DNA of 63,374 bases, counting the filler, from Bacteriovoracaceae bacterium (GTDB lineage: Bacteria; Bdellovibrionota; Bacteriovoracia; Bacteriovoracales; Bacteriovoracaceae), in NCBI GenBank assembly GCA_018649885.1. It is 4 parts of 4 records of this genome, joined end to end, with 100 filler letters (N's around TTAATTAATTAA, not from the genome) between each part and the next. Parts side by side here need not be neighbours in the genome. Positions count along the whole stretch, not along the records: positions 20,330 to 38,714 come from JABIHA010000128.1; 3 more parts are not named here. One strand, 5' to 3'. Shown piece after piece: positions 20,230 through 53,771 of this stretch. The position numbers and the translations under genes were made by a program. The notes under the pieces were generated by a model. The model had not been told where the DNA came from. It did not search any database and saw only the letters and a list, made by a program, of their open reading frames with translations. Within the stretch, counting starts at the first letter, position 1. Every line of letters starts with the position of its first letter.

Positions 20230-20329
20230 NNNNNNNNNNNNNNNNNNNNNNNNNNNNNNNNNNNNNNNNNNNNTTAATTAATTAANNNNNNNNNNNNNNN
20301 NNNNNNNNNNNNNNNNNNNNNNNNNNNNN
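20230..20329. other. assembly linker (N44-TTAATTAATTAA-N44)
   Basis: 100-nt spacer with all-frame stop linker. Confidence 0.97.
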
Positions 20330-20715
20330 GCAACAGCAGAAGCTCAGGCGAGTGCCACTGCAGAAGCTCAGGCGAGTGCCACTGCAGAAGCTCAGGCGAG
20401 TGCCACTGCAAATGCTCAGGCATCAGCAACAGCAGAAGCAGCAGCGAGTGCCACAGCAGAAGCTCAGGCAAGTGCCACAGCAGAAGCTCAGGCGAGTGCA
20501 ACAGCAGAAGCTCAGGCGAGTGCCACTGCAGAAGCTCAGGCGAGTGCCACTGCATATGCGGAGGCAAGTGCCACAGCAAATGCTCAGGCAAGTGCAACGG
20601 CAGAGGCAGCAGCAAGTGCCACAGCAGAAGCGGCTGCGAGCGCAACAGCTGAGGCCCAAGCTAGTGCAACAGCAGATGCTCAGGCGTCGGCCACAGCAGA
20701 TGCTCAGGCAACAGT
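20330..20715 (+). repeat. 24-bp coding tandem repeat (GCAGAAGCTCAGGCGAGTGCCACT; AEAQASAT)
   Basis: About 16 variably degenerate units abutting the gap. Confidence 0.9.
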
Positions 20716-23107
20716 AGCTGCTCAGGATTATCCTGAAACAAAAGTTGTGGCATCCGATGCAGCTGCAGATGATTGGTTTGGATGGTCTGTCTCTATTTCG
20801 GGTAATAACGCTATTGTAGGAAGTTATCAAGATGACGATGGTGCCAGTAAAGCTGGATCAGCTTACATTTATATATACGACCACTCAACTAATACTTGGG
20901 ATCAAACAGCAAAGCTCAATGCACCTGTCCCAGCGGCCCAAGATTACTTTGGGTATTCTGTTTCAATCTCAGGAAATACAGCTGTTGTGGGAAGCCAAGC
21001 AGACGATGATACTTTTGTTAACTCTGGATCAGCTTATATTTTTCAATACGATCCTTCATCGAATACTTGGGATCAAACTGCAAAACTCAACGCATCTGAC
21101 CCAGCTGCTACTGATAATTTCGGAAGAGCAGTTTCAATTTCAGGAAATACTGCCATTATCGCAGCTCCTCTTGATGACGATGCTGGAGGCCTCTCAGGGT
21201 CTGCTTACATATTTCAATACGATCCTTCCTCTGATACTTGGGATCAAACAACTAAGCTAACCGCTTCCGATGCAGCTGGAGGTGACTGGTTTGGAAACTC
21301 TGTTTCAATTTCTGAAAATACGGCGATAGTTGGTGGCCCATACAACGATAATGGTGGTGCTGACTCAGGCTCGGCATACCTCTTCCAATATGATCTCTCC
21401 ACTAATACTTGGGATCAAAAAATAAAATTTACTGCTTCCGATGCAGCGGCAGGTGACAATTTTGGAATTGCTGTATCAGTTTCTCAGAACACGGCAATTG
21501 TGGGTAGCCCATACAACGATGATGATGGAGGTGACTCAGGGTCTGCTTACATTTTTCAATATGATCCTAGCCTCAATACTTGGGCACAAAAGGCAAAACT
21601 CACTGCCTCTGATGCGGCAGCGGGAGATAATTTTGGATTTTCAGTTTCAGTATCAGGAAATACAGCTGTTGTAGGCGCATACAATGATGATGACGGCGGA
21701 GGTAATGCGGGATCAACATATATTTTTCAATACGATCCCACTTCAGACACTTGGAGTGAAACAAAAAAACTGACGGCTTCTGATGGAGCTGGAAGCGATG
21801 CATTTGGATATGCTGTATCAAATTCAGGAAATACCACAATTGTTGGAGGATACCTTGATGACGACGATGGCCCTGCCTCAGGATCGGCTTATATTTATGA
21901 ACTCAATATCGACAATATTGCACCCGCACCATTATGGGAGGAAGAAAAAATCAGCCAGGGGGGAGCAGGTGAATATTTTGGAATAGCTTTATCAATATCG
22001 GGGAATACTGCTATCTCGGGTGCTGCTTCCCCCACTTCCACTGCTGGTAAGGTAAAGTTTTTTCACTATGAGCCTAGCGCCAACACTTGGGATTACAAAC
22101 TGACAGTCACAGCTTCAGATTCAGCCGCTGGGAATTATTTTGGAGAATCCGTATCACTTTCAGGAAATAACATGATAGCTGGAAGTCGTTTGAACGATGA
22201 TAACGGAGCAGATTCAGGATCTGCTTACATCTTTCAGTATGAACCGACCTATATAATTAATATGTACAGATGGACAGAAAAAGTGAAATTGATCGCTTCT
22301 GATGCAGCTGCTGGAGATGAGTTTGGAAAGTCAGTTGCTATATCGGGCAACACTGCAATTGTAGGTAGCCACTATGATGATGATGGAGGTTCCAAATCTG
22401 GATCGGCCTATATCTTCCAATACGACCCCTCCTCTAATACCTGGATTCAAAAAACAAAATTGACAGCTAGTGATGCGCAAGCAAGTGATTACTTCGGTAA
22501 CTCAGTTGCAATATCAGGAAATATAGCTGTTATTGGTGCACACTACAGTGATGATATTGGAGCTTCTGCGGGGTCAGCTTATATATTTCAATATGATCCA
22601 TCAACCAACACATGGGAGCAAAAGGCAAAACTGACTGCCTTTGATGCGGCAGCGGGAGATAATTTTGGAGGTTCAGTTGCAGTTTCAGAAAATACTGTAG
22701 TAGTGGGCGCAATTGGTGATGATGATGCCTATTCTAGTCTTGCAGGGTCTGCTTATATCTTTCACCATGATCCTTCTACCAATACCTGGGATTTTAAACA
22801 AAAAGTGATATCACTTAATGTGAGTCAAGGAAGTATTCGTTTTGGAGGTTCTGTTTCGGTTTCAGGGAGCAATATTGTTGTAGGCACTCTTACTGAAAAT
22901 AAAGCTTACTTTTATCAATACAATCCCTATACCCATCTTTGGGAAGAAAAAGACGTTCTAACCTCTTCAGATCTGGATCCATTCGATTATTTTGGGAGAG
23001 CTGTTTCAATTTCAGGAAATACAATTATGTCGGGGGCCTATGCAGATGATGATAATGGAGCAGAGTCTGGATCAGCCTACATTTATCGCTTAGATTTCGC
23101 CCCCTAA
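20330..23107 (+). CDS. FG-GAP (integrin alpha-like) repeat protein with Ala-rich repeat stalk; 5' end lost in gap
   Basis: Frame is open from 20330 (ATAEAQAS repeats) in frame with ORF 20747-23107; 14 D.FG.SVSISG...GSAYIF repeats, i.e. two 7-blade propellers. A possible start (AAAGGA RBS, ATG 20208) lies before the gap. Confidence 0.85.
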   Translation, partial: ATAEAQASATAEAQASATAEAQASATANAQASATAEAAASATAEAQASATAEAQASATAEAQASATAEAQASATAYAEASATANAQASATAEAAASATAEAAASATAEAQASATADAQASATADAQATVAAQDYPETKVVASDAAADDWFGWSVSISGNNAIVGSYQDDDGASKAGSAYIYIYDHSTNTWDQTAKLNAPVPAAQDYFGYSVSISGNTAVVGSQADDDTFVNSGSAYIFQYDPSSNTWDQTAKLNASDPAATDNFGRAVSISGNTAIIAAPLDDDAGGLSGSAYIFQYDPSSDTWDQTTKLTASDAAGGDWFGNSVSISENTAIVGGPYNDNGGADSGSAYLFQYDLSTNTWDQKIKFTASDAAAGDNFGIAVSVSQNTAIVGSPYNDDDGGDSGSAYIFQYDPSLNTWAQKAKLTASDAAAGDNFGFSVSVSGNTAVVGAYNDDDGGGNAGSTYIFQYDPTSDTWSETKKLTASDGAGSDAFGYAVSNSGNTTIVGGYLDDDDGPASGSAYIYELNIDNIAPAPLWEEEKISQGGAGEYFGIALSISGNTAISGAASPTSTAGKVKFFHYEPSANTWDYKLTVTASDSAAGNYFGESVSLSGNNMIAGSRLNDDNGADSGSAYIFQYEPTYIINMYRWTEKVKLIASDAAAGDEFGKSVAISGNTAIVGSHYDDDGGSKSGSAYIFQYDPSSNTWIQKTKLTASDAQASDYFGNSVAISGNIAVIGAHYSDDIGASAGSAYIFQYDPSTNTWEQKAKLTAFDAAAGDNFGGSVAVSENTVVVGAIGDDDAYSSLAGSAYIFHHDPSTNTWDFKQKVISLNVSQGSIRFGGSVSVSGSNIVVGTLTENKAYFYQYNPYTHLWEEKDVLTSSDLDPFDYFGRAVSISGNTIMSGAYADDDNGAESGSAYIYRLDFAP

Positions 23108-23112
23108 AAGCG

Positions 23113-23187
23113 GTTTCGGGTTTCTAGGGTTTCTAGTTTCTAGCGTTTCTAGCGTTTCTAGTACGTGGTACCCATGGCGACTGACTG
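23113..23187 (+). repeat. stutter array A (TTTCTA-starting units) plus end motif GTACGTGGTACCCATGGCGACTGACTG
   Basis: Six units beginning (G)TTTC; the last runs into the motif at 23161. Confidence 0.85.
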
Positions 23188-23340
23188 AGAAAAAATGTGC
23201 CATGCTCTTTTGGTTTCGCAAGTGCAAAAACATATCACTGCTTTCATAATAAGGTCGTAGGTGCCATGACACTGTTTCACCGTTTTGCTTGAGCTTCTTG
23301 TTAGAATGACCGCTCTTGTCGTTATTAACAGTTATATCTT

Positions 23341-23413
23341 CGGGTAAGCTCGGGCAACATGATCACTAAAACTATTGCCCGGTCTTGCCCGATTTCGCCC
23401 GGTATGCGATAAT
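23341..23413 (+). promoter_or_regulatory. sigma70-type promoter (TTGCCC-N17-GATAAT, extended TG) overlapped by TTGCCCG repeats
   Basis: CGGGTAA/CGGGCAA at 23341/23351 and TTGCCCG/TTGCCCG/TCGCCCG at 23375/23385/23395; -10 box ends 7 nt before ATG 23421. Confidence 0.55.
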
Positions 23414-23420
23414 TGCAATT

Positions 23421-24548
23421 ATGTTGTCATTTCAAATAGATAGCCAAATCACAAAACAGCTAATTGCTCTAAATGAGCTTATGGCTGAGAAATATGCTTT
23501 TTTGGAGTCCCTACCCAAAGACGAGAAAGAGAACATCCACCGTTATGCCTGGATAAGCATGGTAGGGGCCTCGACTCGGATCGAGAATGCCATTCTAACA
23601 GACAGTGAAATTGATTGGTTGGATTCAGTCCTTGGTAAGGACGGAAAGCAAACCGCTCTAGATGCTCATAGGACGCAAATTGAAGACAAGCTCTCAAAAG
23701 ACAAAGAAAGAAGCGTGGAGGAAGTAGCAGGATGTAGAACTGTTCTTCTTCTGATTTACGAGCAGGCCAAAGACCACCTTCCTTTAACAGAGCATGTAAT
23801 AAGATCGCTCCATCATGAACTACTACGGCATTACTCAAGGCCTGGTATTGTTAAAGGTGATTACAAGGATCATTCAAACTCAGTCGTGGAGAAAAACCAC
23901 GAAACAGGCGATAAAAAGACCATATTCAAAACGGCCGATCCGAGTGTTGAAACAGAAATGGCGATGAAGGAGCTTATAGAATGGTACAACAAGGCCATTA
24001 AAGAAGAGCCTTGGCCACTTGTGGTTGCCGTTGAATTTGTTTATCGTTTTTTGGCCATCCATCCTTTTCAAGACGGAAATGGTCGTCTGGGCCGTGCACT
24101 TTTTCTTATGTCGCTTCTACATTGCCCTAACGAAAAAATGGCCGAAGTCGTTTACCATTTGGCAGTAGATCGTCATATAGAAAAACACAAAGAAGAGTAT
24201 TACATTGTATTAAATCAATGCTCTGATGGCATCTATCGTTCTGACTCTACAGAGTATAAGATTGAATACTTTTTGAAGTACATGATTAAAGTCCTCCAGG
24301 GTGCCATGGCCGATGTAGACTTTTATGCCAAGAGGGCCAAAGAGTTTAAAAAATTGCCAGATAAAGCGATCAAATTATTGGAATGCTTTAAGGAAAAAGT
24401 AGAAGAAAGAGTAAAGACTAAAGATATGATCGAAGCAACTGGCTTCCCAAAAAGAACCGTGACAACCAATTTAAAAACCCTTGTCGATAAAGAGTTCATT
24501 GCCCGTTATGGTCAAGGTTCTGCCACTTATTATCAGCTAATTTTCTAG
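23421..24548 (+). CDS. Fic-domain protein (class II) with C-terminal wHTH
   Basis: Canonical HPFQDGNGRLGR; N-terminal inhibitory motif STRIEN; C-terminal GFPKRTVTTNLKTLVDKEFI...G.GSATYY wHTH. Confidence 0.92.
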   Translation: MLSFQIDSQITKQLIALNELMAEKYAFLESLPKDEKENIHRYAWISMVGASTRIENAILTDSEIDWLDSVLGKDGKQTALDAHRTQIEDKLSKDKERSVEEVAGCRTVLLLIYEQAKDHLPLTEHVIRSLHHELLRHYSRPGIVKGDYKDHSNSVVEKNHETGDKKTIFKTADPSVETEMAMKELIEWYNKAIKEEPWPLVVAVEFVYRFLAIHPFQDGNGRLGRALFLMSLLHCPNEKMAEVVYHLAVDRHIEKHKEEYYIVLNQCSDGIYRSDSTEYKIEYFLKYMIKVLQGAMADVDFYAKRAKEFKKLPDKAIKLLECFKEKVEERVKTKDMIEATGFPKRTVTTNLKTLVDKEFIARYGQGSATYYQLIF

Positions 24549-24672
24549 TCTAGGAGTCCATTGGGAGTCTAGGAGTCTAGTACAGCGGAGTCTAGTACGT
24601 GGTTCCCATGGCGACTAAGTCCAGTCTAGTAAGTCTAGAAGTCTAGTACGTGGTTCCCATGGCGACTGACTG
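24547..24672 (+). repeat. stutter array B (AGTCTA-starting units) with two end-motif copies
   Basis: Nine units starting AGTC; GTACGTGGTTCCCATGGCGACT at 24595 and 24646. Confidence 0.88.
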
Positions 24673-25381
24673 TGTAATCATTTTCTAGGTCGCCGAAGTT
24701 TAAACTCGGTTTTCTTAAGTCCTTTTTTAATTTGATTTAGTTCATCAGAAAAAATAGCTTCATTGATTAAACAACTGTGGTTTTCATAAATAATTTTGGA
24801 CTCCAATGGATAACCTATTTCTAAGTTCCTTGAGAGGTAAAAGAGGGTTGAATATTGATAATCTTCACAACGGGTAACAATACCAGCACGCAAGGGATTT
24901 TGATAAATGTATCGGGCCACTTTTAAGAGATAAAACTCATCGTAGATAATACTCCACTTATAAGAACTTCCAAACATGCGATTAACTCTTTTTGTTTTGG
25001 CCCTAAGTAAATCGCTAAATGTTTTATTAAACCAAAACATAAATTGGTCAATATTTGAATCAGGAGTTTTTATCAAAAGATGATAGTGGTTATTCATAAG
25101 AACAAATTGCGAGACTATGGCCGGACACTTCCTTTGTGCTTTCAAAAAGGAATTTTTTGATATTTCCCAAACTTTATCTAAAGGAAGGCAGAACCATTCT
25201 TTGTTATTTGCCCTGGTTGTAATGTGGTAGTAATACAAATTTGTTCGAATTAGATTCTTTCTTGGCATCCCAATCAATTCTATCAATTGGGATAGTCTGA
25301 CAATAATTTTTATGTATCCAATCTCATTACCTCATTTTTGAGATAATGCCATTAGTCTCCAAAGGAACCACGTACGAATAG
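24640..25381. mobile_element. RAYT-like element bounded by inverted ~22-bp end motifs
   Basis: GTACGTGGTTCCCATGGCGACT (+, 24646) and GTACGTGGTTCCTTTGGAGACT (-, from 25375) face inward around the transposase. Confidence 0.7.
24678..25268 (-). CDS. Y1 HUH transposase (IS200/IS605 TnpA superfamily, RAYT-like)
   Basis: MPRK...YHITTRANNK, FVLMNNHYHLL (HUH motif), YIYQNPLRAG (catalytic Tyr), YQYST. Confidence 0.9.
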   Translation of the reverse strand: MPRKNLIRTNLYYYHITTRANNKEWFCLPLDKVWEISKNSFLKAQRKCPAIVSQFVLMNNHYHLLIKTPDSNIDQFMFWFNKTFSDLLRAKTKRVNRMFGSSYKWSIIYDEFYLLKVARYIYQNPLRAGIVTRCEDYQYSTLFYLSRNLEIGYPLESKIIYENHSCLINEAIFSDELNQIKKGLKKTEFKLRRPRK

Positions 25382-25558
25382 TATACGAATAGTACAATAG
25401 TACGAATAGCAAAGGAACCACGTACGAATAGCGTACGAATAGCCACCGAATAGCCCTACGAATAGCCCGAATAGCCCAGCCAAAGGAATCACGTACGAAT
25501 AGCCCAAAGGAACCACGTACGAATAGGTACGTACGAATAGGTACGAATAGCCGAATAG
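25354..25558 (-). repeat. stutter array C (14 units, CTATT(C)-starting on minus strand)
   Basis: 14 units ending AATAG on the + strand, four carrying the CAAAGGAAYCACGTAC core. Confidence 0.9.
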
Positions 25559-25796
25559 TGGTAAATTTATTGTACATTACGCTCCGAGAGTTCAGGCAAA
25601 TAGAAAGAAGCGCTTTTCCATTAGGCTAATGGTAGAAGAGCGTGAAAAGTCAGGCAAATATCCTGCTATCCTTGATGGCTTCTTGCCAGGGCATGGAGCT
25701 AATCCGTATTACCTAAATCGAGCTAAAATCTATTGCCATGCTTTTGCATGGTAAATTTCTAGTCAATTGATGAATCAGGGGGTCTTCTTTGGCCCT

Positions 25797-38714: not shown

Positions 38715-38814
38715 NNNNNNNNNNNNNNNNNNNNNNNNNNNNNNNNNNNNNNNNNNNNTTAATTAATTAANNNNNNNNNNNNNNNNNNNNNNNNNNNNNN
38801 NNNNNNNNNNNNNN
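38715..38814. other. assembly linker
   Basis: N44-TTAATTAATTAA-N44. Confidence 0.97.
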
Positions 38815-53671: not shown

Positions 53672-53771
53672 NNNNNNNNNNNNNNNNNNNNNNNNNNNNN
53701 NNNNNNNNNNNNNNNTTAATTAATTAANNNNNNNNNNNNNNNNNNNNNNNNNNNNNNNNNNNNNNNNNNNN
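53672..53771. other. assembly linker
   Basis: N44-TTAATTAATTAA-N44. Confidence 0.97.

Follow-up and report, generated by a model that had tools for sequence, protein, structure and literature searches.

Nested repeat arrays with a near-constant start at the ends of a TIRtron element in a Bacteriovoracaceae genome

Both ends of a Y1-transposase element in the genome of a Bacteriovoracaceae bacterium (GCA_018649885.1) carry arrays of partial end copies—units that begin 5–7 nt outside the 13-nt core of the terminal inverted repeat (TIR) on the inward-reading strand, run inward for a variable length, and often close with a few extra bases. The link between such arrays and the ends of Y1-transposase elements, at an approximately constant distance, holds in this genome and across the family of related elements. 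The simplest cause, as far as sequence comparison goes, would be a nick that leaves a 5'-phosphotyrosine, and the arrays would most likely be leftovers of abortive transposase action, serving no function themselves. The locus lies in a window of 63,374 nt (the whole stretch of DNA analysed), in which separate contigs are joined by runs of N (20230–20329, 38715–38814, and 53672–53771); the element and its arrays fall wholly inside a single contig, C118 (Table 1).

Table 1. Layout of the element and its surroundings, in window coordinates
Feature	Position	Strand	Description
Upstream gene	20747–23107		Long; array A begins just past its stop codon
Array A	23113–23159	+	Five partial units plus innermost start (G)TTTCT
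Orphan right-TIR copy (copy A)	23160–23187	+	28 nt, flank TTTCT; identified by sequence
Second-family TIRtron TIR	23196–23222	+	Behind copy A; matches TIRs of relatives, e.g., L167 and L009
Third TIR core	23260–23272		Behind copy A; from another TIRtron family
Fic/DOC-family gene	23385–24548	+	PF02661; stop codon overlaps outer edge of array B
Array B	24547–24644	+	Eight partial units plus innermost start AGTCT, outside right TIR
Right TIR	24645–24672	+	13-nt core plus inner part
TnpA-Y1 (TIRYT) gene	24678–25268	-	Intact, 196 aa
Left TIR	25353–25376	-	
Array C	25377–25558	-	Thirteen partial units plus innermost start CTATT, outside left TIR

The motif GTACGTGGTWCC, allowing at most one mismatch, occurs seven times in the window, all within 23161–25520, where shuffled sequences average 0.12; this agrees with an initial sequence-only reading of the locus, which had described inverted copies on either side of the transposase gene and a further copy at 23161. 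Exact copies are restricted to this locus in the genome (5.4 Mb in 151 contigs, 92% complete), as a scan suggested by that reading confirmed, and eight scattered one-mismatch matches elsewhere have no array. Its count of six, nine, and 14 units is likewise borne out, as five, eight, and 13 extra units plus one innermost copy each. With positions numbered from core base 1, one base before GTAC, arrays B and C fit best at an offset of -5, array A at -5 or -6, and those of the two other families in the same genome at -6. The shared start placed 6 nt before GTAC stands for B and C, whereas A parses slightly better at 7 nt, an option the same reading had allowed, and the breakpoint that it called fixed is so only in the sense of a roughly constant distance, with a wobble of 1 nt. 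The 3' ends are variable, as described, but many are not pure truncations, given that 17 of the 23 parsed window units carry 1–7 extra nt; the comparison with telomeres is merely a visual analogy. Contigs from other public sequencing runs cover all three arrays with 0 differences (X3 spans array A, X2 and X5 span B, and X2, X3, and X4 span C; 4 of 18 listed runs were compared, with the possible source run excluded, and the runs may come from related campaigns). This agreement indicates that the arrays are real, though not thereby static, as run contigs lose rare variants; among the four runs compared there was no variation in array length, so any activity at present is hypothetical.

Two further features flank the locus. 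A 24-nt tandem repeat of approximately 16 copies (20333–20709), next to an assembly gap, is in frame with the start of the long gene upstream of array A. Just outside array C, an open frame of 66 aa without a start (25551–25751) matches nothing in Pfam, is single-copy, and may be a gene remnant.

TnpA is a Y1 transposase matching PF01797, and it scores 69 bits against the RAYT model NF047646, below the cut-off of 80. It carries the motifs H61-Y-H63 (NHYH) and Y120-x3-N-P (YIYQNP), of which H61, H63, Y120, N124, and P125 do not vary among the 18 homologues aligned, so that the catalytic residues are intact; a structure model (pLDDT 86) finds its best fold match in 4ER8, the Escherichia coli TnpA-REP. 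A second model, NF033573, examined for likeness to IS200/IS605, matches only two of the 18 members, this TnpA not among them, and a Pfam search detected no HTH family in the protein. Homologues occur in 143 of the 238 genomes of the class, with the named relatives being Oligoflexia and Bdellovibrionales genomes, which would make the host a marine Bdellovibrionota. A search of genome contigs with the single TnpA protein returned only four loci. This genome has a fourth tnpA paralogue (C7, 59355–59963), for which no TIR pair was detected. Among 100 candidate viral stretches examined, no TnpA homologue was confirmed, and plasmids yielded 11 records of distant homologues, with 27–35% identity among the 10 listed.

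Around this tnpA, the TIRs form a 24-nt inverted pair. Across relatives, 245 loci were reduced to 233 distinct elements, and an inverted TIR pair (score of at least 14) flanks the gene in 154; from the 147 TIR-paired elements used, 106 were anchored on a common 13-nt core—GGT[GA]CC...C, then TTT—and 41, mostly of a GGGGTCA type, were dropped. The ends fold no better than shuffled sequences (z -0.4 to +1.0 in four of four stretches), which bears out the earlier remark that the motif is not a long hairpin and led us to reject REP hairpin ends. No target-site duplication rose above shuffled pairs (104 elements, offsets 0–7, lengths of at least 5). In this genome the TIR has one extra end only, copy A; in relatives there are many non-autonomous mini-elements, REPIN-like and comprised of two TIRs 50–150 bp apart (L296, L297, L342–L361, L264, L269, and L277). 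Among the 104 anchored elements of relatives, a stop-codon triplet occupies position -2 at 19 ends upstream and 24 downstream; for position -5 the counts are 16 and 19. These raw counts suggest that elements often adjoin gene ends.

The boundary of insertion coincides with the start of the core or falls close to it, and not at -6, a point against the proposed nick (below), whose part in transposition would be conjectural. That the outer 5–7 nt are carried along at each transposition was rejected, because mini-element flanks diverge from about -1 outward and because native host codons occupy those positions at three loci. True empty sites were sought among relatives without success: for g16, relative G144 has a remnant left by deletion and G127 is just 67–69% identical, all five orthologues of a mini-element site keep TIR remains, and a search around L124 gave no usable empty site.

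Fixed-offset duplications extend across the family, a possibility that the sequence-only reading had proposed to check in the flanks of homologues. In 212 ends, duplication starts peak at -5 to -8, where 36 were counted; the 49 positions between -4 and +44 together gave 38. In a test of 203 ends of relatives—this genome and short flanks being left out—31 had a start at -5 to -8, compared with 414 of 88227 control positions on the outer side and 204 of 17847 on the inner, an enrichment of 13- to 30-fold over controls that are positive at 0.5–1.1%, for a test range picked after the histogram had been seen. The positive ends fall in 30 of 176 independent flank clusters, and approximately 85% of relatives' ends are without a duplication. 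Distant homologues with GGGGTCA show the same duplications; of the 41 ends in that class, 11 have starts between -5 and -12. Polarity is mirror-imaged at the two ends, junctions are without shared homology (unlike slippage products), and the opening bases vary from end to end, so that distance rather than sequence fixes the start, as had been claimed of its independence from the flanking letters. The best-fitting offset does vary among elements, from 4 to 12 with a mode of 5–7, which counts against the nick that we propose.

Within this genome, a scan that used no motif picked out eight places, of which one is a plain microsatellite and seven adjoin the TIR core of a TIRtron family, three such families being represented; of 13 ends examined, 10 have at least two extra units, one has a single unit, and two have no convincing units. 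At one orthologous site in five species, the extra units number 0, 0, 0, 1 (11 nt), and 2 (13 nt), and this difference in number and length indicates that arrays grow after insertion. Mini-elements without tnpA bear the same duplications, consistent with action in trans.

Fic homologues were found twice in 237 other genomes, neither near a TIR core, so a role as regular passenger is not supported, and the Fic gene at this locus is either a neighbour or a passenger. Stacks of TIR ends that belong to different TIRtron families and point the same way occur at 23160–23272 of the window, at 2905–3252 of C67, and at about 3536–3611 of C91; in the window, copy A ends 6–8 nt ahead of the second-family core, and the second-family TIR and third core have profile scores of 13.7 and 17.1. 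A DDE element (PF01609 on C51, C44, and C89), which we take to be IS4-like from the likeness of its TIRs, adjoins an 11-nt TIRtron core at every one of the 16 ends found, nine in outer and seven in inner orientation (contigs C6, C24, C26, C44, C51, C59, C89, C91, C93, C94, C126, and C130), a pattern that insertion into TIRtron cores with duplication of the core would produce. Targeting of REPs by the IS4 family has been described, according to the text consulted (PMC1525189). As a cause of the arrays this element was rejected, since none lies beside the window arrays or those of the C65 family.

The fine structure of the units bears on where and how they were made. From one unit to the next, the base preceding the start is repeated in 41 of 64 transitions, against 31.8 expected (p = 0.0004; 14 arrays, with offsets set by hand), which fits a break that sometimes falls one base further out; a shift from G tails to A tails over time was dropped because this 1-nt wobble explains the data better. 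Extra 3' bases are present in 40 of 74 units of this genome and are G-rich (25 of 52 bases by a conservative count). Among the longer tails, 12 of 32 match the template after a skip of 1–5 nt, where 7.2–7.6 are expected (p = 0.005–0.02), pointing to sloppy synthesis; most tails are not explained by skips, and the G-rich ones, for which the proposed mechanism does not account, are a point against nicking, extension, and rejoining.

Host DNA makes up the first 5–7 nt of the units at the loci where this could be tested. In relatives, these bases are the last codons of neighbouring genes at two loci, and the outer edge of array B encodes the conserved YYQLIF-stop of the Fic protein, whose homologues end in the same codons; the breakpoint thus lies outside the insertion boundary. 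Copy A follows another gene yet retains exactly TTTCT, the 5 nt of the Fic gene end 1.4 kb downstream. Judged by these bases, array A is a displaced right-end copy carrying 5 nt of the Fic gene end. The flank AGTCT of array B (24542–24551) may derive from the Fic flank TTTCT through a 5-nt duplication. Three further TIR ends retain just the last 5–6 nt of an IS4-like end, and joints with foreign DNA share the array offset. At the left end of the C65 element, two copies share six flank bases and differ beyond them, for which chance is possible in A-rich DNA.

A fixed 5' start combined with a variable 3' end and no homology requires a DNA end at the start. Repeated cutting and rejoining, suggested earlier to write the copies, fails on its own because it adds no bases, so that DNA synthesis is needed. 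We consider it probable that the transposase nicks at -5 to -7, that a host polymerase extends the 3'-OH, and that the product is rejoined to the tyrosine-held 5' end. TnpA would bind the TIR, probably as single-stranded DNA at a fork, and nick the inward-reading strand 5–7 nt outside the core, with the 5' end staying bound through Tyr120. A host polymerase would then extend the free 3'-OH of the flank, displacing between 4 and about 44 nt of the bound strand before a sloppy stop, and the new 3'-OH would attack the phosphotyrosine, sealing in a duplication whose start is fixed and whose end varies. Every round would insert beside the innermost intact TIR, leaving a polar array with, we infer, the oldest units outside. 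Were the attacking 3'-OH to come from elsewhere, the same breakpoint would mark a deletion or rearrangement instead, which is how copy A would have arisen. The notion of ruler-like cutting stands in that the distance to the core is approximately constant, 5–7 nt whatever the flank, but it wobbles, and cleavage itself is what the products suggest; the strand cut and the resealing agent are likewise those that we infer. The chemistry has precedent in the accessible text of Ton-Hoang 2012 (PMC3333891): HUH enzymes generate a 5'-phosphotyrosine and a free 3'-OH, and a model for BIMEs has a polymerase-extended 3'-OH attack the adduct and add a unit (Fig. 7B there). In vitro, the 3'-OH of an added oligonucleotide resolves the TnpA-REP adduct, as reported in the part of PMC8266576 consulted.

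Host repair might instead write the units after TnpA has broken the DNA at the same place, either by a ligase once the adduct is removed or by a cut of the opposite strand and re-priming in the TIR through 1–2 nt of microhomology. The G-rich tails and template skips suggest error-prone host synthesis, and two Y-family polymerase genes are present in the genome. Against it, PolX and LigD polymerase were not found in the 92%-complete genome; the families of terminal-transferase-like enzymes PF14791 and PF21686 were not found there either. This route needs extra steps, whereas HUH enzymes self-religate (per the text of PMC3333891), and we regard it as rather unlikely. A scheme in which TnpA cuts twice, at -5 to -7 and inside the TIR, and then reinserts the single-stranded piece or joins at the second cut—models A and B as given in that text of Ton-Hoang—would account for the 28 of 101 templated 3' ends that stop once the invariant G of core position 1 has been copied, close to the apparent boundary of insertion, and TnpA-REP is reported in the same text to cleave several sites. 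The other 73 ends are nonetheless scattered from -1 to +36, the peak at the invariant G is possibly inflated by G tails scored as templated, and a clean second cut leaves the tail bases unexplained; we think two cuts improbable.

Neither of the remaining explanations involves the transposase. Slippage during replication, or recombination, at an imperfect palindrome prone to stalling has in its favour that the core is a weak palindrome and that certain arrays are perfect tandem copies (L009, L013, and L157), which slippage could extend and which count against nicking and rejoining. It is hard to reconcile with units of variable length that share one start, with junctions lacking homology, with a strictly outside-only, mirror-image polarity and no significant hairpin, or with the enrichment over control positions, and we judge it very improbable. 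An assembly or sequencing artefact could be suspected in an assembly this fragmented, with many TIRtron ends close to contig ends, but the concordant contigs of other runs and the arrays at orthologous sites of near-complete relatives make it extremely improbable.

If a nick, extension by a host polymerase, and rejoining do generate the arrays, they predict the nick to base level, 5–7 nt outside the core, set by distance and with no guide sequence. The questions on which they bear are how TIRYTs cut and how RAYT-like enzymes amplify repeats, and the genome is a good source of substrates because it holds three TIRtron families and at least 10 arrayed ends, one of 14 units. We also entertain, as an unlikely extension, that TIRtron ends are polar, iterative DNA-writing sites, at which the 5' end held at -5 to -7 would take any 3'-OH, writing a time-ordered tape of units and rarely splicing TIR ends or passenger genes such as the Fic segment; were this so, domesticated-looking elements would act as capture points in the manner of integrons, from which hypervariable islands are built, and a recorder made of a single protein might serve as a tool.

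The element is a TIRtron with its TIRYT gene, as its Y1 transposase lies between terminal inverted repeats that are not REPs, and the earlier impression of a system not yet described is therefore not upheld. In the text available of Di Nocera 2013 (PMC3733652), TIRtrons are HUH/Tyr transposase genes bracketed by element-specific TIRs unrelated to REPs, their genomes hold small families of solo or paired TIRs elsewhere, and many, not all, TIRs contain GGGGWSAS, the others being unrelated. Our element shares the HUH motif, the catalytic tyrosine, and a gene set between TIRs, not REPs, but its core is of the GGT[AG]CC type, without GGGGWSAS. The same text mentions TIR dimers and clusters; partial copies nested in arrays, a constant offset, and data on cleavage do not figure in the part available, and the literature searched (main texts outside subscription) held no description of nested arrays at TIRtron ends; the word "tandem" is absent from the text consulted of PMC6006769 and PMC5581495. 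No biochemical study of TIRYTs, named in 2013, was found in the literature searched.

The TIRtron arrangement has been tied to TnpA-Y1 subclass 2.1, equivalent to RAYT group 1 of Bertels, in the text seen of Quentin 2018 (PMC6006769). By that account our protein resembles the subclass in NH[YF]H, in the class-2 signature Y-x3-NP, in the few divergent copies per genome, and in the lack of REPs; it differs in its 196 aa against a median of 238, in having no detected distal HTH, and in having FG where subclass 2.1 has W[EQ]/FQ. Lacking the distal HTH and the W/FQ motif, it is related to subclass 2.1 and not a proven member. Classical RAYTs and REPtrons differ further, as our motif is not dispersed, has no GTAG-footed REP hairpin, and goes with a protein below the NF047646 cut-off. 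TnpA-REP shares with our enzyme the fold of 4ER8, and its 5'-phosphotyrosine chemistry and nick-extension-rejoin model (PMC3333891, text consulted) are those invoked here. In the texts consulted of PMC3333891 and PMC8266576, however, it depends on a hairpin with a GTAG foot, and the C|T sites that it cuts lie at varied distances, whereas our element has no stable hairpin, no common breakpoint dinucleotide, and a start set by distance. IS200/IS605 elements (IS608, ISDra2) have the Y1 fold and no target-site duplication in common with ours; they are described, in the available text of PMC3333891, with subterminal hairpins, no TIRs, and action on one strand, in contrast to inverted ends that both bear arrays and to Y-x3-NP rather than Y-x3-Q.

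Already known, then, are the element class and, from the text of Ton-Hoang, a mechanism proposed for a sister enzyme, the arrays resembling the in vivo product of the nick-extend-rejoin model put forward for BIMEs. New here are long arrays in three families of one genome and the 1-nt wobble, together with the host origin of the unit starts, at the loci tested, and joints with foreign DNA at the same offset.
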